From Candidatus Hydrogenedentota bacterium (lineage in GTDB: Bacteria; Hydrogenedentota; Hydrogenedentia; Hydrogenedentales; SLHB01), in NCBI GenBank assembly GCA_045863335.1, contig BTVY01000046.1, forward strand, positions 1 through 60,294: a DNA stretch of 60,294 bases, written 5' to 3'. Numbering within the stretch: position 1 is the stretch's first letter; each line of letters begins with the position of its first letter. Positions 167 through 27,601 of this stretch are shown here, piece by piece. Both the position numbers and the translations under genes were made by a program. Below the pieces are notes generated by a model. It saw only the letters and a program-made list of their open reading frames with translations. It was not told the DNA's origin and did not search any database.

Positions 167-2203
167 TTAGCTGGCGTTGGCGCGCTGTTTTTCGTACTCC
201 GCAATAATCTGCTGCGCCACGTGTTCGGGGACTTCGTCGTAGTGGTCGAAGGTTAACGCATAGCTCCCGCGGCCGCCGGTCATGCTGCGTAAGTCCGTCG
301 AATACCGAAGGACTTCGCCCTCGGGTACATGCGCCCGGACCACTTGGCGCCCGCCGCCCACCGGCTCCATCCCGATGATACGACCGCGACGGCTGTTCAG
401 GTCGCCATTGATGTCGCCCATGAACTCGTCTGGGACGGTTACCTCGATGAGCATGATGGGTTCCAGCAGGCAGGGTTTCGCCTCTTTCACGCCCTTCTGA
501 ATCGCCATGGACGCGGCAATTTTGAAGGCCATTTCCGAGGAGTCCACGTCGTGGTACGAACCAAAGTGAAGTTCCACGATGATGTCGACCACCGGGTATC
601 CGGCGATGACGCCTTTCTCCAGGGCGTCCTGGCAACCCTTATCAACGTGCGGGATATACTGCTTCGGCACGACGCCGCCGACGATGCTGTCGACAAACTT
701 GTAGCCTTCGCCCCGGCCATTCGGGGCAACCCGCAAGTGCACGTCGCCATATTGACCGTGGCCGCCGGACTGTTTCTTATGCTTGCCCTGAACGTCCGAT
801 TTGCCTTTGACGGTTTCCTTGTACGCTACCTTCGGCGTATGTGTCTCGGCCTCGACGTGGTATTTACGCTTCATACGGTCGAGGAGGATGTCGAGCTGAA
901 GGTCGCCCATGCCTTTGACGATGTGTTCGTTGGTCGACGTATCGCGGTAGTGGCTGAAGGTCGGGTCTTCTTCCGCGATTCGATTCAGCGCCTCACCGAT
1001 CTTGTCTTCGTCAGCCCGGGACTTCGGCACGATGGCGAGCTTGACCATGGACTCCGGGAGCTTGATCTCGGGTAGGGTAATCTCCGTTCCCGGCGCGGCG
1101 ATGGTATTGCCGAAGTGCGTGTGCTTGAGCTTCGTCATGGCGGCGAGGTCGCCAGGGCCGACCGCGTCGACCTGCACCTGCTCTTTACCGTTCATGAGGT
1201 AGAGCTTCCCCGTGCGTTCTTTGGACTGGGTGGAAACGTTGTAGAAATCCGAATCCGAGCGCAGGGTGCCGGAAAGCACCCGAAAGAGGGTGAGCTGGCC
1301 GACGAAGGGGTCGACCACGGAACGGAATACCTGACCCAGGAAGGGACCTTTGGGATCGATCGTGATCTCGACATCGCCCCCGGAACCGTTCCGCCCCACC
1401 ACTTTTCGTTCGAGCGGAGTGGGAAACGCGTGGGCGATAAGGTCCAGCAGTTCCTTGAGTCCAATTTCCTTTTCGACACTGCCGCCAATGATGGGGACGA
1501 TTTTGCCTGCTCGGATGCCGTTGTGGAGGCCTTGATCGAACTCCTCGGGTGACAGCTCACCCGTCTCGAGGAATTTCTCCAGCAGGGCGTCGTCGGATTC
1601 GGCGACCACATCCACAATGCCGGACCGGACCGCGTCGATCTCGCCCGCGAGTTCGTCGGACTTACCTGTCAAGATATTGACCGCGCCGTGGAGCGACTCG
1701 CCTTCGCCCAACGGAATGACCAGCGGGACGCACTGGTTGCCGTAGGCGCTGCGGAGTTGTTCGACGACGGAGTTAAAGTTCGCATTGTCGCGATCGAGTT
1801 TGTTGACGAAGATCGCGCGCGGCGTGTTGTAGCGGTTCGCGTAGCGCATGGCGTTGTCGGTACCGACCTGCACGCCCGTCGTCGCGTCGACGACGATGAC
1901 CACGCTGTCGAGGACTGGAACGGAAGAAGCGACTTCGCCGATGAAATCGACGTAGCCGGGATGATCGACGAGATGAATGCGGCACCCGTCCCAATCCAGG
2001 TGCGTCAACTTCATGCAGATGGTCTGCTTGCGCTGGACCTCTTCTTCGAGGTAATCGCAGACCGTATTGCCTTCTTCAATCTTACCGACTCGGTTGGTTT
2101 TGCCGGCGGCGTGGAGCACGTGCTCGATAAGCATCGTCTTCCCCGTTCCGCCGTGACCTAGGATGCCAACATTACGTACACTCCCTGACTCCGAACTTGA
2201 CAT
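167..2203 (-). CDS. fusA: Elongation factor G-like GTPase (EF-G2 type)
   Basis: GHGGTGKT, DHPGYVDF, NKLD, KKQSGGHGQYG, GSYHDVDSSEMAF, DLRSMTGGRG. G2 is divergent (RKQTI) and the gene is outside the str operon, indicating a paralogue. Confidence 0.93.
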   Translation of the reverse strand: MSSSESGSVRNVGILGHGGTGKTMLIEHVLHAAGKTNRVGKIEEGNTVCDYLEEEVQRKQTICMKLTHLDWDGCRIHLVDHPGYVDFIGEVASSVPVLDSVVIVVDATTGVQVGTDNAMRYANRYNTPRAIFVNKLDRDNANFNSVVEQLRSAYGNQCVPLVIPLGEGESLHGAVNILTGKSDELAGEIDAVRSGIVDVVAESDDALLEKFLETGELSPEEFDQGLHNGIRAGKIVPIIGGSVEKEIGLKELLDLIAHAFPTPLERKVVGRNGSGGDVEITIDPKGPFLGQVFRSVVDPFVGQLTLFRVLSGTLRSDSDFYNVSTQSKERTGKLYLMNGKEQVQVDAVGPGDLAAMTKLKHTHFGNTIAAPGTEITLPEIKLPESMVKLAIVPKSRADEDKIGEALNRIAEEDPTFSHYRDTSTNEHIVKGMGDLQLDILLDRMKRKYHVEAETHTPKVAYKETVKGKSDVQGKHKKQSGGHGQYGDVHLRVAPNGRGEGYKFVDSIVGGVVPKQYIPHVDKGCQDALEKGVIAGYPVVDIIVELHFGSYHDVDSSEMAFKIAASMAIQKGVKEAKPCLLEPIMLIEVTVPDEFMGDINGDLNSRRGRIIGMEPVGGGRQVVRAHVPEGEVLRYSTDLRSMTGGRGSYALTFDHYDEVPEHVAQQIIAEYEKQRANAS

Positions 2204-8327: not shown

Positions 8328-9341
8328 TCAGAAGTCTTGCTCCTGGACTTTGGGCCGTTCATGACGTCCCGATCGATCGATGATTTTCCGTAACTGCAGC
8401 ACTTTCTTGTGAGCGTGTTGGTTGCGTGGATCCAGTTGAAGCACCTTCTCCATCACGGCCAACGCCTCCGAATACTCACGACGCTTAATGTGTTGCACCC
8501 CAATGTTGAATTGGGCTGCAAGACTCTTCTTACGAAGACGCCCAGAATGCGGAAACCGCTTCGCCGCGAGCCGGTACTGCTCAAGGGCCCCAGCATAGTT
8601 GCGCGTCTCGAAATAAAAGTCGCCCATGGTCTCTTCCTGGCTCAGATCGTCGGCGACTTCCTGGGATTTCTTGGCCTCTTTCTCCTCCTTGCGCTTGGCG
8701 GCATATTCTTCAGGAGTATATACATTGGCAACCGCCGACGCTTCAACGAGAATGCTGATATTATTCGTGTTCTCTTCCGTCGGGATCAGATGAAACCGGC
8801 TGTCTTCAACGTTGTACGGGTGCAACGTGCATCCGCGGATTATCTCGCCATCGGAAAACTCGACGACCACTTCGTTGCCTTCGGGTGTCCACTCCCGGTA
8901 ACGAGTGCTGCGATCGTATTTGCCATCGAAGCTTTTGACATAGAACACCGCCTTGATGTCGGCGTAACGGATCTGCGTCGTCGAACCGTAAGAAATTCCT
9001 TGCTCGTCCATCTCGTCCAGATGAAAGGTGGTCTCGCGCGGACTCAAGGCGAAGCAAACGCCGCGCGCCACGCGGCCATCCTTGAAACGGACGACAAGGC
9101 GTTGACGCGTTTGCCGCTTTTTTTGATGTTCGGATCGCCGTTGTATCCGTTCCTCGCGGACTTTGCGCTGTTCCTGCCGTTTGACCCACCATTCGTCGCC
9201 CAGACCGGCGGGGCGGACCTCCGTTAGGTACAGCCCTTTGCGCCCGACTTCGTTGATCGCATCTGCTTCGCTCTCCGCATCGAGAACGCCAAACGTCTCA
9301 TTGCCGCTCGCATCGATTGCCTTGTACGCGTATTTACCCAC
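8328..9341 (-). CDS. Soluble protein: PilC/GspF-like N-terminal motif, duplicated beta module (DUF6982-like), C-terminal TPR
   Basis: N-terminus YxYKAIDxxGxxxxGxLxAxSxxxAxxxVxxxGLY; two repeats VVxFxDGxxxxG...FHL; TPR helices at the C-terminus. GGGAG RBS before GTG 9341. Confidence 0.7.
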   Translation of the reverse strand: MGKYAYKAIDASGNETFGVLDAESEADAINEVGRKGLYLTEVRPAGLGDEWWVKRQEQRKVREERIQRRSEHQKKRQTRQRLVVRFKDGRVARGVCFALSPRETTFHLDEMDEQGISYGSTTQIRYADIKAVFYVKSFDGKYDRSTRYREWTPEGNEVVVEFSDGEIIRGCTLHPYNVEDSRFHLIPTEENTNNISILVEASAVANVYTPEEYAAKRKEEKEAKKSQEVADDLSQEETMGDFYFETRNYAGALEQYRLAAKRFPHSGRLRKKSLAAQFNIGVQHIKRREYSEALAVMEKVLQLDPRNQHAHKKVLQLRKIIDRSGRHERPKVQEQDF

Positions 9342-9673
9342 GGCACGCTCCCTTCGCAGACGTTGAATCCAAGTCGGACACAAAATCGTTCTGCGCCAGA
9401 ACGCACGCTGGCCCGTCGTCCAGGGCGAACACCACGGAACGCCTCAACCGTGCGGGCGGCATTCAGACCCAAGGGGCCATATCAAACGTGTACCACGTCC
9501 GGCGCACTGCGTCAAAAGACGAATTATGCTTAAGTCATTGGCAGGGCTGACCTTTCAATGACTCGAACGAAACCCGGAGCGAACTACGTTGCGAATCGGA
9601 TGGAGCCGTTACAGCGGGCCCCATATCTATCGTAACCAATTACATTCTAAGCAATTACTCCACAGAATACAAG

Positions 9674-11192: not shown

Positions 11193-11879
11193 ATGAAACT
11201 CGCGCATATCCTTGCACTGCTTGCGACAACTCTTGGGTCGCTCACCGTTTGGGGAAGCGAAAATGCATCCGAGGAAAAGCCGGGCCAGGCGCCTTCCGAT
11301 AAAGGGGCATCCACGCATCAGAAAGCCGATAGAAGCTCCGCCTTCAGCCGGATCGACGCGGACGCGAACGGTTCGGTATCACTCCATGAACTGCAGAAGG
11401 TCTACCCACGCGTAACCGAAGACCGTTTCTCGGCGCTCGATACCAGCGGCGACGGGGTGCTCGACCGGCGTGAAGCTATGAAGGCCGCGGAACGGACGGC
11501 GACTGACGTACGGGAGCGGTTTCGGCATGCGGACGCCAATGGGGACGGGCAGGTTACGTACGAAGAACTCCGCTCCAGCAATCCAGGAGTCTCGGCCGCC
11601 CGGTTCAAACAGATGGACCGGAATCGTGACGGCGTCTTGTCGCCGACAGACCGGCAACCGGCACAGAAGGGGAATGATCTGGCCCGGAACGAAACACGTG
11701 GCTCGCGCAATGACGCCGCAAGAAAGCTCATGGAATCCGATGGAGACGGGGACGGCGCCGTCACTTTCGAAGAAGTCGTCAAGGCAAAGCCCGGATTCCC
11801 CAGGGATGCTTTCGATCGCTACGACACGACCAAGGACGGTGTGATCACGTCAGACGACTATTCGTCGCGTCAGAATTAG
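11193..11879 (+). CDS. Secreted EF-hand calcium-binding protein
   Basis: Signal peptide followed by six DxN/DxDG loops (DADANGSVSLHE, DTSGDGVLDRRE, DANGDGQVTYEE, DRNRDGVLSPTD, DGDGDGAVTFEE, DTTKDGVITSDD). Confidence 0.85.
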   Translation: MKLAHILALLATTLGSLTVWGSENASEEKPGQAPSDKGASTHQKADRSSAFSRIDADANGSVSLHELQKVYPRVTEDRFSALDTSGDGVLDRREAMKAAERTATDVRERFRHADANGDGQVTYEELRSSNPGVSAARFKQMDRNRDGVLSPTDRQPAQKGNDLARNETRGSRNDAARKLMESDGDGDGAVTFEEVVKAKPGFPRDAFDRYDTTKDGVITSDDYSSRQN

Positions 11880-13462
11880 GTCCGGCGCCGCCGTAGAAGC
11901 AGCTTGGCGAAGGTCCGCACTTCGGGTACGCCGAGGGCCCAGGAAAGAAGCAGGTAGACTGCCACAGCGAGGGCAAGCGGCACGATGACACAACAGGTTC
12001 GGCTAATCCAGGTGTCCTCCGCGAACAGGCTGAAGGTCCGCACATAGGCGGCGTACGCGACGGCGGCCATTACAACCGCGGAGACGGTCATTCGGAGCAA
12101 CGCGCCAGAGAATGCCCGGTCCCATAGTGCTCCGAAGCGTTGGCCGAGCATCAGGTATAGAACGATGAAGTTCACGGCATACGAAATCGACGTGGCCACA
12201 GCGAGCCCTTTGTATCCGTATGGCGCCACGAGCGCGAAGTTCAACACGATGTTGAGTACCATGCTGCCGCTGGACACGATCACCGGTGTCTTGGTGTCCT
12301 TGAACGCGAAGAAGCCCGTCACACACACCTTCACCCACGCGAAAGTAATGAGGCCGGCCGCGTAAATCGCCAGGGCGATAGAGGTCCATTCGGTATCCTG
12401 GGCGGTGAAGTGCCGGTACTCGAAGAGGAGCTTTACAATGGGCTCGCCGACGACGATAAGGCCCAGTGTCGCGGGCGCAATCATGAAGTAAGACTGCCGC
12501 ATGCCCTGCATCAGGAGCGAGCGAACCGCGGGCTTGTCATCCCGGGCTGCGTGACGCGAGGCGGCGGGCAGCACGGCGGCGGCAACGGCGAATCCGAAGA
12601 TGGAGAGGGGCAATTGGACCAACCGATTCGCGTTGTAGAGCGCGGTCACACTGCCCTCCGCGCTTTTGTATGCGAATAACGTATCGACCAGTTTGTTTAC
12701 TTCGCCAGCAGCCTGACCGAACAGGACCGGGACCATCAAGCCGAGCATGGCGTAAATCTCGGGCCGGTGGACCTTGAACGAGGGAAGGCTGACGCCGACG
12801 TGCCGCGAGAGCGCGAAGTACTGCACCGCAACCTGTGCGACACCGCCGATCCACACCCCGATGACGAGCGCATAAGCTGGATCCGGCAGCATGTGGCGAA
12901 ATGCGAAGACACTCGCGATGATTGCCACGTTGAGCAGGGCGGGCGCCCATGACGGGGTCGTGTAGTGATGTACGGTGAAGAGGGCCGCCATGGAAAACAC
13001 GGCCAAGCCAATCCAGAAGAGATAGGGGAAGGTCCATCTCGACAAGGATGAGACCAGAGCGATCGTGCTGGGGTCCAGTTGCTCGCCCTTGGTGATAGGG
13101 TGCAGGGCATTCAGTCCCTGTAGCAATTGTGGTACGAGCAACACACCGATGACGCTGAGAACCGCGAGAAGGAGGATCATCCCTCCCATGGTCGCGGCGA
13201 CGACCTCCCGGAATTCCTTTTGCGACTTCTTTTCGAGAGTCTCGGAAAAAACGGGGATAAATGCCGCATTCGAGGCGCCCTCTCCGACGAGATCGCGGAG
13301 CATGTTGGGGAACCGGAACGCGACGATGAAGGCTTCGCGCGAACCCTCCGGTATGAAGATGTTCATGACTTGGTCGCGAACGAGGCCGAGCACCCGGCTG
13401 AGCATGGTGCCCCCGGCAAAAATCGCGGCGAATCTGGACAAATTGCGTTCAGGCTGCGACAT
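11876..13462 (-). CDS. murJ: Lipid II flippase MurJ (MviN)
   Basis: SRVLGLVRD, AFRFPNMLRDLVGEGA...AFIPVF, ANRLVQLP, DTKTPV; polytopic membrane protein. Confidence 0.95.
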   Translation of the reverse strand: MSQPERNLSRFAAIFAGGTMLSRVLGLVRDQVMNIFIPEGSREAFIVAFRFPNMLRDLVGEGASNAAFIPVFSETLEKKSQKEFREVVAATMGGMILLLAVLSVIGVLLVPQLLQGLNALHPITKGEQLDPSTIALVSSLSRWTFPYLFWIGLAVFSMAALFTVHHYTTPSWAPALLNVAIIASVFAFRHMLPDPAYALVIGVWIGGVAQVAVQYFALSRHVGVSLPSFKVHRPEIYAMLGLMVPVLFGQAAGEVNKLVDTLFAYKSAEGSVTALYNANRLVQLPLSIFGFAVAAAVLPAASRHAARDDKPAVRSLLMQGMRQSYFMIAPATLGLIVVGEPIVKLLFEYRHFTAQDTEWTSIALAIYAAGLITFAWVKVCVTGFFAFKDTKTPVIVSSGSMVLNIVLNFALVAPYGYKGLAVATSISYAVNFIVLYLMLGQRFGALWDRAFSGALLRMTVSAVVMAAVAYAAYVRTFSLFAEDTWISRTCCVIVPLALAVAVYLLLSWALGVPEVRTFAKLLLRRRRT

Positions 13463-13533
13463 GGCGTTCGTTCAGGTGTTTCCCCATTTGGACGTTAAGG
13501 CGTTCACTCGGTGCTGCGGCATTGCGGCCGCCT

Positions 13534-15099
13534 TCAGACCTTCTTGATAGATCCCCGAAAAGACTGAATCGCTGCCCACCCCGCAAGCAGACTTACGATA
13601 CCCAAAAGAGCGTTCGGTACGAACAGTGGTCCAGGCGGAAACGGATGGGATGCGGGAAGGGCGGCGGGTAAGACGCCCCCCAACCGGTGCATGCGCGTTT
13701 CCGCCGCGTCGACGTCTCCCAACCGGTACATGTTGCCGCGACCGTCGAAGTAGGTGTCGACCAGCGTGAACCGGCCCCAGGGATCGAACATTCCGGTAAT
13801 GCCGGTGTTGGCACAGTGGGCGACGGGCAGGCGCGTCTCGACCGCGCGTACTCGTGCGATCTCCAACTCCTGCTCGAGGGCGCTGCTCGCGCCGAACCAC
13901 CCCAAGTTCGTCATCACGACGAGAAGATCGGCGCCTTCCGCGCGGAGGTGCGCTGACATGGGCGCAAACAAGACCTCGAAACAAATCAGGGGCCCGATCG
14001 TTCGGTCGCCGGCCTTCAGGATCTTCTGGATTGTCCCCGCCTGGATGTCTCCAATGGCGGGAACGACTTTGGATATGAAGGGAAGATACTCGCTCAGCGG
14101 AACGTATTCGCCGAATGGCGCCAGGTGGATCTTGTCGTACGAGTCCACCAGGGTTCCGTCGGGTGCGACCAGATGGCTCGAGTTCAGACTTCCGCCCGTA
14201 TCCGAATCGGATCGGTGGGTTCCGGCAAGGAGGGCGGCTTCCGTATCGAGAACCAGACTTTGCACTTCCCGATAGATCGGCGGCGAATCGATGTCGTCCA
14301 TCACGAGACTTTCCGGCCACACAAAGAGATCGACGGGGGCATTCTGCGCCAGCATGCGCGATTTGGCCGCCGCGTTCTGCACCATGTCGACCGTGTACTC
14401 GGGATCCCATTTCATCTCGAGGGGAAAGTCCGCCTGGAGCAACCCCACATTGTAGGGTGGATCGGCGTACTGCGCCTGGCCAATCAGAGGCCAACCGCCC
14501 GCGTGAGTGACGATGAGCAGGGCAAGTACACCGCCGAGGCGCGGAAGACGGCGTTTGGATTCCGCGATGGCTCCGGCAATCAAGGCATTGCTCAGGATGA
14601 GAAACAGTGATATGAGCGAAACGCCGCCGAATGCCGCCCACTGAAGCAGGGGCAGGTCGAGGCCTTGTGAATAGCCGAGCGCCCCCCATCCGAAGCCGGT
14701 GAAGGCGAAAGACTGAACGTGCTCCATGGCGCCCCAAAGAACTGCCAGCACCAGAGCAGACGGGCTGCGCGGGATCGTTTCGCGGATGCGAATCCACGCC
14801 CACCCCACAACCGCCCAGAACAACGCCATGATGCAAGACAGGGCGACGTAGCCAAGAAACGCCCAGCCACCGGCCCAATAGACGTTCGCCATGAGCCACT
14901 GGAGCAGCACGAGGTAAAATACAACCCCCGTGGCAAAGAATTGCACGGCGGCGGAGCGTGCCGGCATGGCCCACACGCGCGCGAGCACCGGCGCCAGAAC
15001 AAACCATGCGAGCGGGAAGAGGTGATATCCGGGGAACGCCAGCGCAAGGAGCGAACCGGATAACACCGCAAGGCCGAAGGTTTTGAGGAAGGACATCAT
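13534..15099 (-). CDS. lnt: Apolipoprotein N-acyltransferase
   Basis: N-terminal TM helices with GFGW; nitrilase triad VWPE, YDKIHLAPFGEY, ICFE; RAVE...NTGIT. Confidence 0.95.
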   Translation of the reverse strand: MMSFLKTFGLAVLSGSLLALAFPGYHLFPLAWFVLAPVLARVWAMPARSAAVQFFATGVVFYLVLLQWLMANVYWAGGWAFLGYVALSCIMALFWAVVGWAWIRIRETIPRSPSALVLAVLWGAMEHVQSFAFTGFGWGALGYSQGLDLPLLQWAAFGGVSLISLFLILSNALIAGAIAESKRRLPRLGGVLALLIVTHAGGWPLIGQAQYADPPYNVGLLQADFPLEMKWDPEYTVDMVQNAAAKSRMLAQNAPVDLFVWPESLVMDDIDSPPIYREVQSLVLDTEAALLAGTHRSDSDTGGSLNSSHLVAPDGTLVDSYDKIHLAPFGEYVPLSEYLPFISKVVPAIGDIQAGTIQKILKAGDRTIGPLICFEVLFAPMSAHLRAEGADLLVVMTNLGWFGASSALEQELEIARVRAVETRLPVAHCANTGITGMFDPWGRFTLVDTYFDGRGNMYRLGDVDAAETRMHRLGGVLPAALPASHPFPPGPLFVPNALLGIVSLLAGWAAIQSFRGSIKKV

Positions 15100-15163
15100 G
15101 GGAGCGGGATCATGCGCGACCGATCAGAAAAAATCAACCGTCACCGCTGTGAATGCCGCTTCG

Positions 15164-16549
15164 CTACAGTTCCTCATCCATGAGTTCGGCTTCTTGCTGA
15201 AGCTTATCGCGGTTGCGCCACTCCGAGCCGCGCCAGAAGTCGAGTGCGTCCTCCATTGGAGGATTCATCTCGCGAAGATTTACCACGGTGGGCGAGACGA
15301 AAATGAGCAGGTGACTGTTCAAGATGTCGTTGTCACGACCGCGGAATGGAATGCCGAGTACCGGCAAGCGGCCGACAATGGGAACACGCTTTTCCGTCTT
15401 GCGGATAACACGGCTCGAGAGTCCGCCGATGACCAGCGTCTGCGTATTGGGTACGAGCACCGAACCCGTCTGCTTGCGGCTGGAAAACACCGGCACCTGC
15501 AACCCCTGGATGGGCGTATCTCTTAGCCGGTCACTCACTTCGAGGTTGGTGATATCGATCTGAATAATGTCGTTCGGCAGAATAACCGGCTTCAAATTGA
15601 TGTTGACACCCAATTGGCGCCACTCAATTTTGAGCAAGGGGACGCCGTTCTTGTACTCCACGCCCTGAAATGGGACGTCGTCACCGGCTTTGATCTCGGC
15701 AATCTGCTCGTTGATGACGAGCAACTCGGGTTTGGAGATCAAGTCCGAATCCGACTTCGTCTCGATGGCGCGCAGGATTCCGTCAATGGTGCCGCGGTCA
15801 TCGTCGATGATGCTATACGTCAGCCCCGCGCCCCGTTGCGTATTCAGCTGAGACTCGCCGGGGCGGTTCGGATCGTTTACGAGCGAATTGCCGGGCGTCC
15901 ATGCAGTATCCGACTCCGGAGTCAGCCGCACGTTGTCCGGATACGGGCTTCCATCCGGCGCAGGCAACGTCGACTGAAACGTCTGATCGGTCGGCACAAA
16001 GGTCTCCGTGCGAACGCGTTCGAGCGAACCGCTCTGCTCGTCGCCGCGAACAAACCGGGTGTAGTTGATATTCGAACCGATTTCGCGCGCTCCGTCCTCG
16101 TCGGTCTGGCTGATCCAGACCTGGATCTGGACCTGCCTGATATCGACCGGCGGCGGTGGGGGCGGCGCTTCTGCCGGTGGCGCCTCTGCCGGCGGCGCTT
16201 CTGCCGGCGGCGCTTCTGCAGGCGCGGCCTCTGCCGGCGCGGCCTCGGCCGGCGGCGGTGGTGCTGCCTCAGCCGGGGGCGGTGGAGGCGCTGCCTCGGC
16301 CGGAGGCGGCGGTGCTGCCTCAGCCGGGGGCGGTGGAGGCGCTGCCTCGGCCGGCGGCGGTGTTGCCTCAGCTGGAGGTGGTGTTTCAGCAGGGGGCGGC
16401 GGCGCGGCTTCGGCTGGAGGTGGTGGAGGAGGAGCCTCTGCCGACGGCGGTGGCGCGGCCTCGGCTGGAGGCGGATCCTGGGCGAAAGCAGTTGGTAAAA
16501 ACGTGACTGCAATCAGGACGAGACAGCAAAGTACTGCGCGTGCCATCAC
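15164..16549 (-). CDS. Secretin-family outer-membrane protein lacking N-domains, with a Pro/Ala/Glu-rich N-terminus
   Basis: Signal peptide, ~110 aa of PAEAAPPP repeats, then core QVQIQVWI...LISKPELLV...GVNINLKP...TLVIGGL...VPIVGRLPVLGIPF...LLIFVSPTVV. Confidence 0.85.
   Translation of the reverse strand: MMARAVLCCLVLIAVTFLPTAFAQDPPPAEAAPPPSAEAPPPPPPAEAAPPPPAETPPPAEATPPPAEAAPPPPPAEAAPPPPAEAAPPPPPAEAAPPPPAEAAPAEAAPAEAPPAEAPPAEAPPAEAPPPPPPVDIRQVQIQVWISQTDEDGAREIGSNINYTRFVRGDEQSGSLERVRTETFVPTDQTFQSTLPAPDGSPYPDNVRLTPESDTAWTPGNSLVNDPNRPGESQLNTQRGAGLTYSIIDDDRGTIDGILRAIETKSDSDLISKPELLVINEQIAEIKAGDDVPFQGVEYKNGVPLLKIEWRQLGVNINLKPVILPNDIIQIDITNLEVSDRLRDTPIQGLQVPVFSSRKQTGSVLVPNTQTLVIGGLSSRVIRKTEKRVPIVGRLPVLGIPFRGRDNDILNSHLLIFVSPTVVNLREMNPPMEDALDFWRGSEWRNRDKLQQEAELMDEEL
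16148..16476 (-). repeat. Coding tandem repeat (PPPAEAA/PAEAP units)
   Basis: Multiple near-identical GCCGAGGC/GCTGAGGCAGC units visible in both DNA and protein. Confidence 0.9.
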
Positions 16550-17700
16550 GGACTGCCTCCCAACTCCGACTCAATTCCCTGTTCACGCCCTTCACCGGCA
16601 ATCCCTTCCGCGATTCCTTCAGGGATACCGGCGATGCCGCCGATCACGTCGCCGATGACATCGGTGGGTTTCATACGTTCTTTGGCTTCTGCATCGTCTT
16701 CAAAAACGGATTCGTCGACCACGGTATACGCGGGACGCCACGCTTCGCACTTGATGAAAAAGACCAGTTCGCGGCGCTGCTCTTCCGTCGTTCGATTACC
16801 CAGCGCGGAGGACACAGGCGAACCGATGAAGTTGCCGGGGACGACGCGTTCGACCAATCCCACGGCAAGGTCTTCGGCCTTGGTCAGGCCGGGCACCGAA
16901 TCCAGGGACTTCGTCTTACGATTGCGGAACAGCCCTCCCAGGATCAGCACTTGCCCGTGGCGGACCCAGACGTTGGTCGTCATGCTGCGAGAGACAAACG
17001 TGGGCGCCACGACTTGGTTCGCTCCCGCGAACCGGTCGTCCACCGCGACGACGATGTCTTCACCCAGTTCCTTCACCTCGGCAAGAAGCTGCAGTTTGAT
17101 AAAGGTGTCGTCCACTGTCGTCCAGTCACCGTCATCGTCAATAACATCAGGAACGCCGACCTGCAGGATAACGCCGGTCTTGCGGAAATCGGTTACACCA
17201 ACGACGGTCGTACCCACAACGGTCGGGTTCTCATAGGGGTTCTCTTCGACGGTTTCGATAACGGTCGGAATGGTATTGCGTACCATTACCATCGCCTTCG
17301 GTCGCGAGAGAATGTAAGCACGGTTCTCGTTCACGAGCCCTTGCAACACGAATTCCATGTCGCCGTCGCTCAACCGAAGGCGGTCCAGAAAAACGGTAAT
17401 TGCCCCTTCCGAATCGAGCGGGAACGTCAGATCGGCAGTCGAGATGGCGCCTTCACCGTCCGAGACCCGGCCGTAGGTCTTGGGTTCCTTGCGGCGGGCA
17501 TAGAAGGCGCTAAGCCCGGTATCCACGCCTTTGGTCGCCTGGAACTCAACCACTTTCATGGTCACGCTCACCTGTTCGGGAGCACCAACCTGTGGCGGGG
17601 TTTCCGGAACGGTAATCTCGATTTGTGGCGTGTCTTGGCCCCAGGCCGCGGCACACAGCAGAGGCGCTAACCACAGTGCTCTGCATAGGCTTCGGTTCAT
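16546..17700 (-). CDS. Second secretin-family protein lacking N-domains
   Basis: Signal peptide, core starts about 20 aa later: QVSVTMKVVE...ILSRPKAMV...KTGVILQV...PTFVSRSMTTNVWVRHGQVLILGGL...RELVFFIK. 4-nt overlap with the next gene. Confidence 0.8.
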   Translation of the reverse strand: MNRSLCRALWLAPLLCAAAWGQDTPQIEITVPETPPQVGAPEQVSVTMKVVEFQATKGVDTGLSAFYARRKEPKTYGRVSDGEGAISTADLTFPLDSEGAITVFLDRLRLSDGDMEFVLQGLVNENRAYILSRPKAMVMVRNTIPTVIETVEENPYENPTVVGTTVVGVTDFRKTGVILQVGVPDVIDDDGDWTTVDDTFIKLQLLAEVKELGEDIVVAVDDRFAGANQVVAPTFVSRSMTTNVWVRHGQVLILGGLFRNRKTKSLDSVPGLTKAEDLAVGLVERVVPGNFIGSPVSSALGNRTTEEQRRELVFFIKCEAWRPAYTVVDESVFEDDAEAKERMKPTDVIGDVIGGIAGIPEGIAEGIAGEGREQGIESELGGSP

Positions 17701-17709
17701 CAGACCTCC

Positions 17710-18711
17710 CTACCGCTCGAATGTCGGGACGCATTCGTAACGGTGAATGTCGTCGATGTTGGCAAAGTTGCTGAAACGAACGCTGAACGCCCGAATCTCT
17801 CCCGGGTTCAAGCGGCCAATATTGACCGTGTTCGTGTCGTACACCATGTTGCCGAATCCGTATATCGTCACGATGACCTGGACGCCGTAGAGCACGCTGT
17901 CTCCGCGGTTCACGGCCTGACCGGTGACGACATAGTACATGCTTTCGCGCGTGATCAAATCGCGCCCGCTCTGGAAAGACGCGGTGTTGATGATGGCCAG
18001 CGGCCGCTTCTCGATCTCCCTGCGCTGCACTTCGCCCGGGGTCAGCACGATGTATCCGCCGGATGGCAGCAATTCAATCCGCGTGCTGACTTCGGGGTCG
18101 CTTGCGACTTCCGGGCTCTCCTTTACGACCCGCGCGTACAACCGGCCCGCATAGTCGTAGTCGCCCCGCTTCCAGAGCATGTCGGCAAGTTTCAGTTGAT
18201 TGCCGACGTTGTTGGGGTCGGCCTTCAATTCTTCTGCTAACTGTCGAATTTCGGCTTCGAGCTTTTCCGCAGTCCAGTATTTCTGCTCGTACTCGTCCTG
18301 GAGATTCGCGGCGTACTGCCGGCTTTCTTCGGCGTAGGGGCCGTCGGGGGCCAAGCGTAAGTACTCGTCGAAGACTTCAATGGCTTCCCGGTAGCTCTTG
18401 ATATTCATATAGGCCACGCCGAGCCAATACCGCGCATCCAGTGAGGAACGCGAGTTGGGGTATTTGGCGATGACCTGCAGCAGCCGGGGAATCACCACGG
18501 TGGTGTCGCCCGACTCGAGCATGCGGCGCGCCTCTTCCACCTCTTTGCTGCTGGACCGCTGGTCAAGCATCCGGTTCTTGGAAACCGGGGTCTCCGTCAT
18601 GGGAGGATTGGACCGGGGCGTCGTACAGCCGGCGGTCACGAAAAGAAGGGCCGATGCCGCCATCACAACAAGCGACAGGCCCCAGCACTGCGCGGATATC
18701 TTAGATCTCAC
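17710..18711 (-). CDS. TPR lipoprotein (BamD/YfiO-like repeats) with C-terminal FxLYD-like beta domain
   Basis: Lipobox TAGC; KYPNS..DARYWLG...YLRLAPDG TPR pattern; C-terminal VTGQAVNRG...LNPGEIRAFSV. Confidence 0.72.
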   Translation of the reverse strand: MRSKISAQCWGLSLVVMAASALLFVTAGCTTPRSNPPMTETPVSKNRMLDQRSSSKEVEEARRMLESGDTTVVIPRLLQVIAKYPNSRSSLDARYWLGVAYMNIKSYREAIEVFDEYLRLAPDGPYAEESRQYAANLQDEYEQKYWTAEKLEAEIRQLAEELKADPNNVGNQLKLADMLWKRGDYDYAGRLYARVVKESPEVASDPEVSTRIELLPSGGYIVLTPGEVQRREIEKRPLAIINTASFQSGRDLITRESMYYVVTGQAVNRGDSVLYGVQVIVTIYGFGNMVYDTNTVNIGRLNPGEIRAFSVRFSNFANIDDIHRYECVPTFER

Positions 18712-18720
18712 TACCGTCCC

Positions 18721-19152
18721 CTATTTTGCCTTTTCATCGTCTCTCGAGGCGTCGTCACCCAACTCCTTGAGAATCAACTCGGTAATATCCTCGGCAGGGA
18801 TGGCAGGTTCAAGACTGGCCAAGTACCCCTGGGCAACGATCAGGTCGTATTCCGTATCCTGGCCGACCTGCGAGATGGCCCGCGTCGTACGATCGCTGGC
18901 TTGGCTCATGAGAATCCAGTACTTACCGGTGCCTCGTTCGACTTTGCTTTTCTTCAGTTGTTTGTACTCAGGCGTGGCTTTCACGACTTCATCATAATCG
19001 ACCTCGCCGGCCTTTTCGAAGCCGGTTGCCGCGCCCCAGTAGACCTTCTGGGGGTCTACCTGGTCCGCGGGGATGGAATGTATCTCCGCCACCGCCATCA
19101 TGGCGAGCGCCGCCACAATAGAACCTGCAACCATTCTTGCGTTGGTACTCAT
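18721..19152 (-). CDS. Small exported protein resembling a truncated OmpH/Skp
   Basis: Signal peptide; GEVDYDEVVKATPEYK...AISQVG...YDLIV...DITELILKEL match both Skp head-domain halves, joined by a very short linker. Confidence 0.55.
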   Translation of the reverse strand: MSTNARMVAGSIVAALAMMAVAEIHSIPADQVDPQKVYWGAATGFEKAGEVDYDEVVKATPEYKQLKKSKVERGTGKYWILMSQASDRTTRAISQVGQDTEYDLIVAQGYLASLEPAIPAEDITELILKELGDDASRDDEKAK

Positions 19153-19238
19153 GGTCGTAGTCCCTCACTTCACCTTATGGTATAAATGGACTTACGCACA
19201 AGACAGGTTTTTCAACCTGTAATCCCGCACAGAATCCA

Positions 19239-19267
19239 ACCCTACTAATTCTGCGAGCCTTTGTCAA
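19239..19267 (-). promoter_or_regulatory. Sigma70 promoter for the Skp-like/TPR/secretin operon
   Basis: TTGACA-17 nt-TAGGGT on the minus strand, about 87 nt upstream of ATG 19152. Confidence 0.65.
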
Positions 19268-19663
19268 CCAATTCCCCGCGATGGCCATTTGTGCTTTCGA
19301 GGGTTAGAAATTGGAGGCTCCCCCAAAATCCCTGCGTCCCCGTTTGTCTACCAAGGAATCGGGCGTTCAAACTTTCCAGTCACTCTTCAAGGTGTATACT
19401 CACAAATACGGGAAAGTTGCACCAGTCGTTACAGAATTTCCAGCCAAATCTCAGTCCAACCTCTCACCATTGCTGGTATCCGATTGCGTCCCAGCAACGT
19501 AGACGCCCCAAGCCATGGGGGTATTCACAGCAATTTTCGGGGGGATTTATGATTGCCGCGACAGAACGCCGCGAGAGGTCTAGTTGGGATTGTACACGCC
19601 CGAGCCGGGATTCGCAATCCCGGAACTATGGCGTCAACGTGGAAGTACTTTCCCACGTTTGCT

Positions 19664-19692
19664 TTGACAGGGTACAGGCTTGCACCTACAAT
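19664..19692 (+). promoter_or_regulatory. Near-consensus sigma70 promoter for the GH42-like gene
   Basis: TTGACA-17 nt-TACAAT, 48 nt upstream of ATG 19741. Confidence 0.8.
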
Positions 19693-19740
19693 GAGCCGTC
19701 CGCAGCATTCACGTTCCCTCACGAGAAAGGACCTCGCTCG

Positions 19741-22392
19741 ATGCACCGTAGTTTGCCGATTCCACTCCTCCTTGGGGCAATATGCCTTCCGTGGTGCGCC
19801 GCCTTCCTGGCGAGAGCCCAAGGGTTACCTGCTGCCTCTGACGCAAGCAAACTGTGGGTCGAGGAGCTGGGCGCCGCCCGGACGCCTCAGGCATCCGTGG
19901 AGGCGACGGTATCCAACCAATTCCTGCTGCCCGCGACTGTGCTTTGGGATGGAACCATCATGGCAGCGGAGCCCTTCGACAAGATCGCCGCGCGCGTCGT
20001 GGTGGAAGGCGAGGATGGGGTGCCACGGTACAAGGGTGAAGTCCTTCTGGATGTCGTGATCGGCGAGAACCCCTTCTCCATCGCCTGGAATCCGGAAGGT
20101 CTTCCGGACGGGGACTACGTTGCGAGACTGACCGTCGACCGTTCCGAAGGCATGGAACTCGCTTCGCGAACGTACCGTATCCGCCGGATTACTGGCTCTC
20201 ATGTCGAGTCGCTGCTTCAGGAACTGGAGACTGATCTTCGGGAACTCGAGAGCCATGTCGCCGCGGTCGCGGGGAGTGTCGTGCCGTACGCCGGGTATCG
20301 GTTGGCGATCGTACATGACTACCTGCCCGCAGCCGCGGCCGCTTACCTGGATGGCTCCTGGCGCAGGGCTTTGGACGACTCCAGGTTTCTACAGTCTTTG
20401 CTCGACACGATTCGCGTGGACCTCAGTTTGCGGACGGCAAAAGACGAACCACTCCTGTCGCCGATCCCGGTTGTCCGAAATGTTGAGATCCGCGACGGGA
20501 TGTTCATGAGCGAAGGGCGGCCGGTCTTTCTCTTCGGCGCAACGGCTGATTACGACGAATTGGTGTCGGCGCTCCCGGCGCTTCGCCGTTACGGTTTGAA
20601 TATCGTGGAGACGCGGGTGGGTCCTGCGGACACCCTGGAGCAACGAAACGGGGCCGGTACGGTGCCACAAGCGGTCACGAGCCTCCTGGAAGGCGCGGAA
20701 GCGGCAGGGATGGGCGTGACGATCAGCCTGGCGCCGGATGCGATGGCGCCATGGGTCTATGATGCGTGGCCGGCGCTGGCGGAAGGGGGAGCCGGTACGT
20801 TTCCCTACGACGTGACGCATCCGCGGCTGGAATCGATTCTGGAGCGCCACGCGCAGACCCTCGTTCCAGCACTGTCGGGCGAGCCTTCGCTGGTCAGCCT
20901 GGCGTTGGCGGACCGCCCCGAAATGCAGTTTCTCGGCGAACCAATTCGGCGCGGCCTGATTACCTTTGCCAAGAATCAGTACGGCGACCGGGAGATCATG
21001 AACCGGGTTTGGGGAACCTTTTACCTCGACTTTGACGACGTCGTGTTGAACTGGAATCTGGATCGCCCGGCGTACCGGCACGATCTGTCGCTGTATCAAT
21101 ACCAACTGGGAACGGCTTTCCTCGAAGGCTTGAGCGATCTCGCCCGCCGGTATGCCCCGGATGCGGCCATTCAGGTTAATCAGTCTGACAGGGCATTCGA
21201 AGCGGGAGAATCCGCGTTTGGATTGAATCGGGAAAGTGTTGCGCAGTTCACGGACGTCAGCGGTTGCACGGCGATGGAATCGCTCGAACATCCGTATCTT
21301 GTTCTCGGATACCCATCGCAGAGTTTGAACTACACCCTCCATCAATCCTTGGATCAGGATGCGCCGGTATTTAATACCTGGGATTCCTTCGTCCCGGGTG
21401 AAACCGCGCCAGCGAGCGTGTTAGGTGTGGCGGCGTATGCGCTGGCCTGGGAAGGGGCAATGGCCGGACTGAATGCGTCCACCGCGCCATTGGGCAAACC
21501 GGACGGCAGTTCCCAGACGCTGCTGGGGCGGCCGCAACGGCTGGAGGGTTACGCCCGCGCCTGCTTGGACCTGAACCGTCTGGCGCCGGTGGTCACCGCG
21601 TTCCAATCTGCGGCGCCGGAAATCGGAATTCTCTGGTCGTTGTCGTCCAAAATCTTTGAGGATGGCACACCCTATCTGGAATCGGTAAAGCATGCCTATG
21701 AGGGGTGTCATACGTTCGGGTTTAAGGTCGGTTTTGTTACCGAGAAGGATATCGTCGACGGCGGGCTGAATGACGTGAAGATTCTGGTTTTGCCGGAAGC
21801 GCCCTCCGTTTCCGACGAAGCATTTGCCCTCATCGATGCGTACATCGCGGGCGGCGGCATCACGATCCGGCAAGGAAAGCCAATCTCGTACAACCCGCGG
21901 GGCTTGTCGCGCCAAGAAACGTTGTCAACGTCCGCGCGCACCATCCTGATTCGCGGAGTGGATTGGCCGACGGAGTATTTGCACGCGTTGGACGCGGCTT
22001 GCGACCTGGATGGAGCGCCTTCGGTGCCGCGCGCCACCAACGCGTCGCGATATCCTCTTGAGGGGGTGAAGACCCGCTACCTTGAGCACAACAACGAGGC
22101 GTATCTCTACGCGATTAACCTGCGGAAAGAGCCCGTAACGGTCTATCTGGCCGGCCCCTTCACACGAGGTGTCGACTTGATCGGTGGAAACGAGGTTCAT
22201 TTCCCCACGGTCATGGCGCCAGCCGAGCCGGTACTTCTGCGACTCGCTCCACCGGATGTGGTGATCGTTGCGGAAAGTGACACACCGTTGGATGCGGACC
22301 TGCCACTCGGTGTGGTTGAACCGATCCAGCAGGAGACCCCGAAAGAACAGTCCACCAGGCCTCCGGTGCGTCACCAGGAAATCAAGCGATAA
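19741..22392 (+). CDS. Exported GH42 beta-galactosidase-like protein, probably non-catalytic
   Basis: AAGGA RBS and signal peptide ending ARA; GRPVFLFG, APWVYDAWP, QYGDREIMNRVWGT; C-terminal trimerisation-like domain (IGILWS...ILVLPEA). Confidence 0.68.
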   Translation: MHRSLPIPLLLGAICLPWCAAFLARAQGLPAASDASKLWVEELGAARTPQASVEATVSNQFLLPATVLWDGTIMAAEPFDKIAARVVVEGEDGVPRYKGEVLLDVVIGENPFSIAWNPEGLPDGDYVARLTVDRSEGMELASRTYRIRRITGSHVESLLQELETDLRELESHVAAVAGSVVPYAGYRLAIVHDYLPAAAAAYLDGSWRRALDDSRFLQSLLDTIRVDLSLRTAKDEPLLSPIPVVRNVEIRDGMFMSEGRPVFLFGATADYDELVSALPALRRYGLNIVETRVGPADTLEQRNGAGTVPQAVTSLLEGAEAAGMGVTISLAPDAMAPWVYDAWPALAEGGAGTFPYDVTHPRLESILERHAQTLVPALSGEPSLVSLALADRPEMQFLGEPIRRGLITFAKNQYGDREIMNRVWGTFYLDFDDVVLNWNLDRPAYRHDLSLYQYQLGTAFLEGLSDLARRYAPDAAIQVNQSDRAFEAGESAFGLNRESVAQFTDVSGCTAMESLEHPYLVLGYPSQSLNYTLHQSLDQDAPVFNTWDSFVPGETAPASVLGVAAYALAWEGAMAGLNASTAPLGKPDGSSQTLLGRPQRLEGYARACLDLNRLAPVVTAFQSAAPEIGILWSLSSKIFEDGTPYLESVKHAYEGCHTFGFKVGFVTEKDIVDGGLNDVKILVLPEAPSVSDEAFALIDAYIAGGGITIRQGKPISYNPRGLSRQETLSTSARTILIRGVDWPTEYLHALDAACDLDGAPSVPRATNASRYPLEGVKTRYLEHNNEAYLYAINLRKEPVTVYLAGPFTRGVDLIGGNEVHFPTVMAPAEPVLLRLAPPDVVIVAESDTPLDADLPLGVVEPIQQETPKEQSTRPPVRHQEIKR

Positions 22393-24660: not shown

Positions 24661-26046
24661 ATGAAATTTCACTTGCGGCGTTTGTGTTGTGTGCTACTCG
24701 TTGCGGCGTGTGGCTTGAGTCTTATCGCGACGGCCCAGGAGTCGCCGGCGGAACGCGATGCGCGGATGGCTTGGTGGCGCGAGGCGCGCTTCGGCATGTT
24801 CGTCCATTGGGGGTTGTACTCCGGGCTCGCGGGCACGTGGAAGGGCGAAGCCGTCGGTGACCGCGGCGGGATGGAATGGATTCAGCAGCGGGTGAAAGCC
24901 GACACGTGGGAGTACGCCCACGAAGCGGTTCCCCACTTCCGGCCTGAAGCAGGATTCGCGGAGGATTGGGCGCAATTGGCGAAGGACGCGGGGTGCCAGT
25001 ACGTGGTGTTCACGTCCAAGCATCACGACGGGTTTGCTCTGCACGATTCTTCTGTAACCGACTACGACGCGCACGACCTCGTGGGACGCGATCTGTGCAA
25101 GGAAATCGTTGACGCCGTGCGCACGCAAGGGTTGCGCGTCGGGTTCTATCATTCCGTCATCGATTGGCACCATCCCCAGTACGACTACGACGCGGCGAGC
25201 AGTCTCCCCCATCCGCTGCATGGACAACCCTCGCCGAATGGTCCGCGCAATCACGCGATCTACCTCGAATACCTCCACCACCAGGTGCGCGAGTTGATGT
25301 CCAACTACGGGACCATCGACATCCTGTGGTGGGACTATTCGAAACCTGAGAATGAAGGGCCGTTCTGGCGCGCGGACGAACTGGTGGCTATGGTGCGGGA
25401 ACTGCAACCCGCGATCATCACCAACGATCGGCTCTATGCCATCCCGAATATCGAGAAAGACGACTCCGTTGGGCGGTTGCACCAGTGGAAACCCGAACGC
25501 GGCGACTTCACGACTCCGGAGCAGACGGTGCCGTCTACAGGCGTGCCGGGTGTGGACTGGGAAGTCTGCATGACCATGAACACGACCTGGGGCTATTCGG
25601 AACACGACCACGCGTGGAAATCGACGGAGACCCTGTTGCGCAACCTCATCGACATCGTCTCCAAGGGCGGCAACTACCTGCTCAACATTGGTCCAAAAGG
25701 CGACGGCTCCATCCCCGAGGAAAGCATCACCAGCATGCGCGCCATCGGCGATTGGTTGAAGGTCAACGGCGAGGCCATCTACGGCACCACCGCCAGCCCC
25801 TTCGAGCCTCCCGCCTGGGGACGCTACACGGCCAAGCCTGGGAAGTTGTACGTACACGTATTCGATTGGCCGGCGGATGGGATGTTGCAGATTCCACTAA
25901 CCTCCGGTCCACCCCATACTGCTTACTTGCTGGCGAACTCGAGTCGCAACGCACTGCGCGTGGATTCCTCCCAGGAAGGTATCGTCATTCATGTACCAAG
26001 CACAGCCCCGGATGCCATTGCATCCGTTATTGAGATTGAATTGTAG
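24661..26046 (+). CDS. Alpha-L-fucosidase (GH29), exported
   Basis: WWREARFGMFVHWG, SKHHDGF, ILWWD nucleophile, GGNYLLNIGP...G.WLKVNGEAIYGT. Confidence 0.93.
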   Translation: MKFHLRRLCCVLLVAACGLSLIATAQESPAERDARMAWWREARFGMFVHWGLYSGLAGTWKGEAVGDRGGMEWIQQRVKADTWEYAHEAVPHFRPEAGFAEDWAQLAKDAGCQYVVFTSKHHDGFALHDSSVTDYDAHDLVGRDLCKEIVDAVRTQGLRVGFYHSVIDWHHPQYDYDAASSLPHPLHGQPSPNGPRNHAIYLEYLHHQVRELMSNYGTIDILWWDYSKPENEGPFWRADELVAMVRELQPAIITNDRLYAIPNIEKDDSVGRLHQWKPERGDFTTPEQTVPSTGVPGVDWEVCMTMNTTWGYSEHDHAWKSTETLLRNLIDIVSKGGNYLLNIGPKGDGSIPEESITSMRAIGDWLKVNGEAIYGTTASPFEPPAWGRYTAKPGKLYVHVFDWPADGMLQIPLTSGPPHTAYLLANSSRNALRVDSSQEGIVIHVPSTAPDAIASVIEIEL

Positions 26047-26226
26047 ATGGCGCAACACGGTTTGCACGATTCGAAGGCTTCGAACCTTCGCCATCGATGC
26101 ACGTCACGCGGCGGCGTCACAATTCCGTATTGTCCTTGAAGGCTCCCGCCGCTTTGGCCAAGAATGGGGTCTACGATTGATGCGCAGGCGTTCGAAGATT
26201 TTGGAGTCGCTATCGTGCAATACGAG

Positions 26227-27522: not shown

Positions 27523-27527
27523 AAGAG

Positions 27528-27554
27528 ATAGGACTTATAGGACGAATAGGACCA
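27528..27554. repeat. 9-bp tandem repeat x3
   Basis: ATAGGACTT ATAGGACGA ATAGGACCA. Confidence 0.75.
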
Positions 27555-27601
27555 CTTGCGCTCTTCAACGGGCCGGGCCAGAACGATAAGGAGACGCCTC
27601 C

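Follow-up and report, generated by a model that had tools for sequence, protein, structure and literature searches.

Can a secretin barrel serve the outer membrane without periplasmic N domains, and can two kinds of subunit share it? Secretins are homo-oligomeric portals that couple to a motor in the inner membrane through their periplasmic N domains, and the N3 domain is held to be necessary for their assembly. The question is raised by a cluster of genes in Candidatus Hydrogenedentota bacterium (assembly GCA_045863335.1), within a stretch of 60,294 nucleotides of contig BTVY01000046.1 that is referred to here as the window. The cluster encodes a small Skp-like exported protein, a lipoprotein with tetratricopeptide repeats (TPR) and a C-terminal FxLYD domain, and two secretins, A and B, neither of which has a periplasmic N domain. 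The lipoprotein and the two secretins (hereafter TPR-A-B) are conserved in nearly all genomes of the phylum Hydrogenedentota and recur in a second phylum, the Sumerlaeota. In our view the module is genuine and conserved, a variation on known secretins that has apparently not been described before, and a plausible functional model can be proposed for it. In that model, which we consider to have an even chance of being right, A and B co-assemble into one vestibule-less gated secretin pore, the TPR-FxLYD lipoprotein acts as its pilotin or clamp and the Skp-like protein is a lineage-specific holdase.

A preliminary description of the locus, made from the letters alone, had reported four closely packed minus-strand genes with gaps of 9 and 9 nt and a 4-nt overlap, and the coordinates of the open reading frames (ORFs) confirm it. 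The Skp-like, lipoprotein and A genes are each separated by 9 nt, after which the start of B lies over the stop of A in a 4-nt GTGA overlap. Two further minus-strand genes, lnt and murJ, continue the row, giving a series of six genes in the order Skp-like, TPR lipoprotein, A, B, lnt and murJ. Export signals were assigned by inspection of the protein sequences. The arrangement of the cluster is far beyond chance, because it is found repeatedly across a phylum.

Both proteins are secretins by domain content. The Pfam family Secretin (PF00263, cut-off 27.5 bits) matches residues 123-273 of A with 60.3 bits and residues 261-423 of B with 103.5 bits, and is also matched by 60/60 A-family and 61/61 B-family members. 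Secretin_N, STN, AMIN and BON were all absent from A and B in the Pfam scan at E ≤ 0.1, and no periplasmic N-domain family was detected by Pfam in the 60 A-type and 61 B-type relatives at E ≤ 0.01. Both proteins score far below the cut-offs of the secretin equivalog families, with 44.2 bits for A and 97 bits for B against 351.35 for GspD (TIGR02517), and 37.3 and 99.6 bits, respectively, against 284.35 for PilQ (TIGR02515).

The predicted structures point in the same direction. AlphaFold 2 (AF2) monomer models with a mean predicted local distance difference test (pLDDT) of 65.4 for A and 67.6 for B are all-beta after the signal peptide, and the alpha/beta N3 fold is seen in neither. Compared with solved secretins, the A model gave a Foldseek E value of 2.2e-11. 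In structural superposition (VIA), residues 41..322 of A fit on residues 175..403 of the f1 phage secretin pIV (Z 11.4, root mean square deviation (rmsd) 5.3, 155 residues aligned), residues 135..424 of B fit on pIV 172..403 (Z 11.6, rmsd 4.8, 171 residues aligned), and the B model fits on residues 314..619 of Vibrio cholerae GspD with Z 12.4. For each query, 28 secretin entries head the VIA ranking (Z 9.7-11.9 for A, Z 9.4-12.6 for B) and the next entries fall below Z 6. The superposition extends over the whole C-domain of both proteins, in models of moderate pLDDT (65-68).

The borders of the domain can be placed from these alignments. In pIV, N0 spans residues 1-88, N3 residues 108-172 and the secretin domain residues 175-405 (PMC8563730; this paper and the two others cited below are drawn on in extract). 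Since the models align from the first secretin-domain strand onward, A and B are, as far as these analyses reach, without N3 or any other N domain. A profile alignment agrees for B: its strand QVQIQVWISE pairs with EpsD of Vibrio from residue 223 onward, and this first strand is where the alignment starts. Ahead of the first secretin strand, A has 19 residues and B a structureless 113-residue Pro/Ala/Glu repeat tract. Pfam, the AF2 models and VIA therefore bear out the claim that two N-domain-less secretins begin their core right after the signal peptide or a Pro-rich tract. The preliminary description had expected a profile scan to return Secretin alone, as it did for both proteins, and had proposed a folded N3-like domain as the finding that would speak against it; neither the AF2 models nor the pIV alignment contains one.

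A and B are only distantly alike (about 19% identity over the aligned core), and each has features of its own. In A, the region of the amphipathic loop is enlarged and the C-terminal tail is conserved. The helices that follow the secretin domain of B end in an acidic stretch and a Leu, and align with the S-domain region of GspD in VIA. An acidic stretch followed by Leu or Ile closes 50/61 B sequences, and Phe or Tyr takes this place in the deep-branching and Sumerlaeota forms. The extreme C-terminus of B (15164-15205) also resembles the C-terminal peptides bound by TPR clamps. The Pro-rich tract varies in length, as relatives of B at 84-94% identity differ in size (378-479 aa). The public gene call for B in this contig (P0128) is 277 aa long and omits both signal peptide and tract. 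Relatives favour the reading of 461 aa, as does the conserved overlap of the B start with the A stop. Elsewhere in the same genome, a candidate for a third, very short secretin-like protein is a 246-aa ORF (G000:C9:23951-24691), which has a signal-peptide-like start, a sub-cut-off Secretin match of 21.9 bits and no match to the A or B profile.

Conservation of the cluster was followed with a profile of the A alignment, which retrieved 79 loci from genome contigs, all in metagenome-assembled genomes (MAGs) of Hydrogenedentota type, some of them otherwise labelled. B follows A in 69/69 loci with enough sequence, and the stop of A overlaps the start of B in 69/73, with an overlap of 4 nt in 53 loci, of 1 nt in 15 and of 11 nt in one. 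Immediately 5' of A comes the lipoprotein gene in 65/67 loci, and the 2.5 kb ahead of A include the Skp-like gene in 57/59. Linkage is looser on the other side, where lnt comes after B in 45/60 loci (those with at least 2 kb of sequence past B) and murJ within 4 kb past B in 36/53. Both deep lineages of the Hydrogenedentota carry the TPR-A-B module, again with A and B overlapping or abutting. A survey of gene neighbourhoods had been proposed on the view that lack of synteny in relatives would count against a common system; the order Skp-like, TPR, A, B recurs across the phylum. Many of the MAGs with the module are labelled Nitrospiraceae, Nitrospirales, FCB group or Bathyarchaeia (L025, L033, L037, L052, L056-L059, L068 and others), which are probably mislabels or the result of bin contamination.

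At the level of genomes, A is present in 128/135 members of the phylum (85/86 of high quality) and B in 127/135 (84/86 of high quality). Five genomes without A and B were searched again with the lipoprotein and Skp-like profiles. Two of them have both of these genes at contig ends, so that an assembly break accounts for the missing secretins, and all four genes are missing from the other three (G101, 95% complete; G038, 84%; G030, 79%). The source genome has a single copy of each of the four genes. Tandem extra copies occur as A-B-B in genus g28 and as two A and two B genes in G119 (G119:C288, G121:C631, G122-G124, G125:C477).

The family is not confined to the Hydrogenedentota. Among 1.84 billion representative proteins, searched by profile with no length filter, there were 33 matches at E ≤ 1e-30, followed by a long series of metagenomic secretins of 290-360 aa in which the match begins just past the signal peptide. 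All named members of this series belong to the Sumerlaeota (BRC1). With a single Sumerlaeota protein (P0392) as query, five Sumerlaeota metagenome loci were matched. Four of them (L110, L112-L114) have the lipoprotein, 26-29% identical over residues 55-332 with FxLYD included. A- and B-type matches were found in L112-L115, as overlapping or abutting neighbours; B of L110 fell under the tblastn threshold and was assigned from the adjacent ORF and its score of 95 bits with the A2 profile. The Skp-like gene, lnt and murJ are absent from the Sumerlaeota stretches retrieved. The conserved core is TPR-A-B, to which particular lineages have added the Skp-like gene and the linkage to lnt and murJ. What had been described as a four-gene unit, perhaps co-transcribed with lnt and murJ, holds as a syntenic group across the Hydrogenedentota, where lnt is linked in 45/60 loci; the Sumerlaeota loci share the three-gene core and lack the Skp-like gene, lnt and murJ. 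Nor are core-only secretins a peculiarity of this locus: metagenomes contain a broader group of them, 290-360 aa long, and a precedent is in print in the mitochondrial pair GspD/GspDL (PMC8134430).

Two trees place A and B among the secretins. FastTree was run on 143 secretin domains (the A set, the B set, representatives of at least 280 aa and the long secretins of the own genome) and an IQ-TREE quick tree on a hand-chosen 65/143 rows; the sample is biased to the A profile and without named reference secretins, the root is unknown, and support is of SH type only. A-type proteins form a clade in which nearly all members are short, with 45 rows (three of them 429-494 aa long) and SH-like support of 96 in FastTree and with 22 rows and SH-aLRT support of 99 in IQ-TREE. 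The B clade is supported by 89 and 94, respectively. In IQ-TREE, a branch with support 94 has all 22 secretins longer than 400 aa on the same side. In FastTree, 4/37 representatives longer than 400 aa fall inside the short-secretin clades, and six long secretins of the own genome and G002 all fall in a separate 63-row group. In both trees the Sumerlaeota proteins join their namesakes, A with A and B with B. The A/B duplication is accordingly older than the split of the phyla, because the A and B orthologues of both phyla group separately. The phylogeny that had been called for thus puts A and B in short-secretin clades, and not nested among full-length PilQ or GspD proteins, the placement that would have pointed to truncation.

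Decay was the simplest explanation to be weighed. A and B are short, and automatic annotation names their relatives GspD, PulD or CpaC, as would be expected if they were decayed or truncated PilQ or GspD remnants without a function of their own. We consider this scarcely credible and have rejected it on three grounds. The A and B frames are intact across 128/135 genomes, at lengths of about 340-430 aa down to 35% identity. No full-length orthologue was found among the 1.84 billion representatives, where the best protein of at least 500 aa outside the family reaches E ~1e-14, compared with E ≤ 1e-30 for the 33 family matches. The trees set A and B in short clades apart from the long secretins.

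The lipoprotein is the third constant member of the module. As had been claimed, it is a TPR lipoprotein: its lipobox cysteine (Cys29) is conserved in at least 90% of 42 sequences and its TPR matches are generic, both by family and in a profile comparison with solved structures, which returned only generic TPR proteins. Its scores for BamD (TIGR03302, 33.8 bits against 81.4) and PilW (TIGR02521, 28.1 bits against 154) lie below the family cut-offs, and so does Tgl (NF033762); weak matches to PilW occur in 24/42 relatives and to Tgl in 5/42. FxLYD (NF038353) is matched above its cut-off (32.8 bits against 23), and in 42/42 relatives including those of the Sumerlaeota, with a best E value of 2.4e-10. 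Among Atlas models, the C-terminal domain resembles beta-sandwiches of the DUF3426 type (TM 0.60-0.67), a lead only. A search with the C-terminal region returned only Hydrogenedentota orthologues among the matches listed (best 120). One public record labels the lipoprotein BamD.

The Skp-like protein is less well defined. OmpH (PF03938) is matched with 23.8 bits (E 5.8e-5) against a cut-off of 32.4, by the C-terminal 50 residues only (profile positions 92-141), and weak OmpH matches occur in 30/46 members of the family (best E 3.6e-5). The family profile found nothing significant among solved structures, where LptA came first with E 0.39, and an Atlas search with the protein returned unnamed clusters only. 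Of the mini-Skp announced in the preliminary description, what remains is a small exported protein with an OmpH-like match; the Skp label itself is weak.

These sub-threshold likenesses bear on another explanation, in which the lipoprotein and the Skp-like protein would be paralogues of BamD and Skp type that serve envelope biogenesis in general, placed in a housekeeping cluster with lnt and murJ and not tied to the secretins in particular. The frequent continuity of the cluster with lnt and murJ agrees with it, as do the weak matches to BamD and to CpoB/YbgF-type TPR proteins and the BamD name in the public record. It nevertheless seems improbable to us. TPR-A-B is intact in the Sumerlaeota with neither lnt, murJ nor the Skp-like gene beside it; the TPR gene almost always stands directly 5' of A; and the three genomes without A and B (G101, G038 and G030) are also without the TPR and Skp-like genes. 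Moreover, the source genome encodes canonical bamA and skp next to each other (C44) and a bamD above the cut-off (C20) elsewhere, together with lptD, lpxC and tolC-type genes, so that the TPR and Skp-like genes of the cluster are extra copies. For the same reason, the idea that the module replaces a missing envelope machine was rejected: BamA, Skp, BamD, LptD, LpxC and many TolC-type genes are present.

Whether the genes of the cluster act together was approached through expression and rates of divergence. Parts of the stretch are contained in 22 runs from 17 studies of sludge, bioreactors and wastewater, three of them recorded as RNA, as Logan contigs. Those of RNA library X2 (13284-15641, 16370-17840, 17879-18842 and 18902-19700) bridge the murJ/lnt, lnt/B, B/A, A/lipoprotein and lipoprotein/Skp-like junctions; as contigs, they are no proof of one continuous transcript. 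In a wastewater metatranscriptome (X18, 92-96% alike), the Skp-like and lipoprotein genes are covered, as are parts of B and murJ. X22 and X19 cover small parts, X19 is probably DNA, and gaps in coverage carry no weight as evidence. Over 33 six-gene loci, the distance matrices of A and B correlate with r 0.88, and with a partial r of 0.76 after the divergence of lnt and murJ is regressed out, compared with partial r values of 0.20-0.46 for the other gene pairs within the cluster. This pattern fits co-evolution of A and B.

Co-evolution would also be compatible with a pair of separate pores. To our knowledge, all characterised secretins are homo-oligomers, and the structure matches of A and B include 13- to 15-fold single-chain entries that are consistent with that rule. 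A and B might accordingly form two separate homo-oligomeric rings with different jobs, or nested or stacked ones, sharing the lipoprotein and linked for co-regulation only. Their low identity and the tandem extra copies of B, or of both genes, in G119 and G121-G124 favour such rings. The start-stop overlap kept in most loci, the presence or absence of A and B together and the partial rate correlation argue for a closer bond, although each of these is compatible with two rings all the same. On balance, we think that two separate rings are unlikely.

Another alternative connects the pore to a filament machine. A and B could be the exit for a machine resembling a type IV pilus (T4P) or type II secretion system (T2SS) encoded elsewhere, or an accessory of the type IVa pilus (T4aP) secretin PilQ, with a pilotin of the PilF/PilW/Tgl type. 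In G002 (L108, G002:C4, 6938-15991), a gap of about 500 nt separates TPR-A-B from a downstream row of pilM, pilN, pilO, a pilP-like gene and the gene of an 873-aa PilQ, all on the same strand; this PilQ contains AMIN, Secretin_N and Secretin, and the Skp-like gene is absent from the locus. The source genome encodes eight ATPases of the GspE/PilB class (at least 340 bits) as against five long secretins, and four of the ATPase genes lack a long secretin on the same contig or at a distance of up to 100 kb. The weak PilW and Tgl matches among the lipoprotein relatives fit as well. Several observations detract from these points. Without N0-N3 there is no coupling surface of the GspC/PilP type known from the extracts of PMC8134430 and PMC10499894; the G002 adjacency is one locus among more than 80, the others having lnt/murJ or unrelated housekeeping neighbours; the T4aP cluster of G002 has its own PilQ; and ATPases and secretins were counted in a draft assembly of 105 contigs. 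A connection with a filament machine is possible, if doubtful, and use of the pore in trans by the secretin-less ATPase loci is possible and weakly supported.

Our preferred reading, a joint pore of A and B, would work as follows. A and B are anciently diverged paralogues, each with little beyond the secretin C-domain, and would be produced in fixed proportion from translationally coupled genes. Together they would form a gated double-beta-barrel pore in the outer membrane without the periplasmic N-domain vestibule. The TPR-FxLYD lipoprotein would be their dedicated assembly and anchoring factor at the outer membrane, after the manner of TadD, PilF and PilW, and perhaps clamps the conserved acidic C-terminus of B. 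The Skp-like periplasmic protein may have joined in the Hydrogenedentota as a holdase of their own. Since one copy is retained in almost all genomes of the phylum, we propose a housekeeping envelope function for the pore. A stronger form of this model, in which A, B and the lipoprotein make up an autonomous hetero-oligomeric pore that is a core part of the envelope in Hydrogenedentota and Sumerlaeota and is uncoupled from any machine of the type IV filament type, is advanced tentatively, as the less probable outcome.

Several points weigh against a joint pore. N3 is stated to be needed for pore assembly by GspD (PMC8134430), so that a core-only bacterial secretin might not assemble alone. The AF2 models are of moderate confidence, and residues 77-105 of A and 173-203 of B, inside the domain, have pLDDT below 50. 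The TPR part of the lipoprotein reaches the cut-off of no pilotin family, and the Skp assignment of the 143-aa protein sits under its family cut-off. The correlation between A and B may mean shared family constraints and not contact, as it comes without a significance test and from related loci. A-B-B arrangements and doubled pairs in some genomes argue against a strict 1:1 requirement, and the module may be dispensable, given the 95%-complete genome in which all four genes are missing. Finally, the RNA-library contigs may hold DNA, since X2 covers the intergenic region and the divergent gene beyond it equally.

The closest published analogue, likened by description, is a pair of truncated mitochondrial proteins, GspD and GspDL (PMC8134430). 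The T2SS-derived mitochondrial system (miT2SS) with GspD and GspDL occurs in jakobids, heteroloboseans and others (Horvathova et al. 2021, PMC8134430). According to the same extract, mitochondrial GspD is without N0-N3 and retains the amphipathic helical loop; the protein forms oligomers, enters liposomes and makes pores in vitro, and the authors view the GspD/GspDL paralogues as an elaborated pore. The likeness lies in a secretin C-domain protein without N0-N3 beside a second, more divergent C-domain paralogue. The miT2SS differs in being eukaryotic and organellar, with homologues of GspE, GspF and GspG and a separate GspDN of the Secretin_N type (PMC8134430). In contrast, the secretin domain is complete in both A and B, helices like those of the S-domain are retained in B, and there are no linked Gsp genes.

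Among bacteria, the nearest model for B and the lipoprotein would be the Tad secretin RcpA with its TPR lipoprotein TadD, which binds the last four residues of RcpA (PMC10499894). RcpA-TadD resembles the present pair, as does PilQ of T4aP with PilF, PilW or Tgl, in that a TPR outer-membrane lipoprotein is encoded alongside the secretin that needs it (PMC10499894); the C-terminus of B is conserved. RcpA and PilQ differ in having periplasmic N domains, operons with an ATPase, a platform protein and pilins, and one secretin per system, as described in that extract (PMC10499894). Their pilotins consist of TPRs only, whereas the lipoprotein here adds the FxLYD beta-domain and reaches no PilW or Tgl cut-off. 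f1 pIV, the smallest secretin to be well characterised, is the compact template that A and B fit best; as far as the extract tells, its N0 and N3 couple to pI/pXI and join in gating, and it is a homo-15-mer with no pilotin (PMC8563730). GspD and PulD, with their S-domain pilotins PulS and AspS, are the best fold matches for B (Z 12.0-12.6, over about residues 125-461 of the model, C-terminal helices included). They differ in possessing N0-N3 and a gsp operon, and B with 97 bits and A with 44 stay far from the GspD equivalog cut-off of 351. The set of BamA, Skp and BamD likewise puts an OmpH-like periplasmic protein and a TPR lipoprotein alongside outer-membrane beta-barrels; in this case the canonical genes lie elsewhere in the genome and the versions in the cluster stay under the family cut-offs.

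A full-text search of a limited literature library found no paper on Hydrogenedentes or Sumerlaeota secretins, on minimal or stand-alone bacterial secretins or on FxLYD, and no description of the TPR-A-B module; other papers may exist outside it. The public names GspD, PulD, CpaC, BamD or hypothetical protein conceal the family. The module would show that a secretin barrel is usable without the vestibule, probably with two subunit kinds. If the pore is autonomous and hetero-oligomeric, it would be the first mixed-subunit secretin, the first stand-alone outer-membrane channel secretin and a free-living bacterial counterpart of mitochondrial GspD/GspDL. As a small natural system of three or four genes, it would lend itself to asking what the C-domain can do alone, how pilotins recognise secretins and how a gate opens without a piston, and it would give a bacterial comparison point for the puzzling mitochondrial pair.

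The features of the locus are collected in Table 1.

Table 1. Features of the secretin cluster and the genes that follow it (positions in the window)
Feature	Position	Strand	Details
Skp-like (OmpH-like) exported protein, first gene of the cluster	18721..19152	minus	ORF of 143 aa
TPR lipoprotein	17710..18711	minus	ORF of 333 aa; Cys29 lipobox, TPR ~56-205, FxLYD 259-320
Secretin A	16546..17700	minus	384 aa: signal peptide, 19-residue linker, secretin domain ~41-325, tail 325-384
Secretin B	15164..16549	minus	461 aa, GTG start: signal peptide, tract 24-136, secretin domain ~137-428, helices 430-460
Tandem DNA repeats, periods of 15/27/45/51 nt	16161..16383	minus	code for the Pro-rich tract of B
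Promoter-like motif TTGACA-17-TAGGGT	19239..19267	minus	5' of the Skp-like gene; unproven
lnt, apolipoprotein N-acyltransferase	13534..15099	minus	TIGR00546, 280 bits (cut-off 132.9)
murJ, lipid II flippase	11876..13462	minus	TIGR01695, 372.6 bits (cut-off 235.6)

The cluster had been described as standing behind a promoter, TTGACA-17-TAGGGT. The motif is there on the minus strand (TTGACA at 19267-19262, a 17-nt spacer and TAGGGT at 19244-19239). As a promoter it is unproven, because its -10 hexamer agrees with the consensus at only 3/6 positions, the site is absent from the output of the consensus promoter scan, and that scan found three sites in total where 2.5 are expected by chance; for promoters and terminators together, the scan counts equal the shuffled expectation. 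One metatranscriptome contig terminates at 19227, and contigs cannot mark a transcript start.

The absence of an adjacent ATPase, platform protein or pilins was upheld by Pfam on 23 further ORFs (167-39278), which include no T2SS or T4P ATPase, platform or pilin gene. The sole related item nearby is a 172-aa protein with a prepilin-type N_methyl motif (31319-31837), 12 kb from the cluster and with no pilus genes around it. On the plus strand, a divergent ORF (19261-22392) of up to 1043 aa has an internal signal-peptide-like Met start and no Pfam match at E ≤ 1e-5. Beyond it, a run of glycan-degradation genes (24661-31088; alpha-L-fucosidase, GH109-like oxidoreductase, two sulfatases) points to a lifestyle of degrading sulfated polysaccharides. 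On the other side, past murJ, positions 8328-9383 encode a 351-aa protein with DUF6982 and a TPR repeat.

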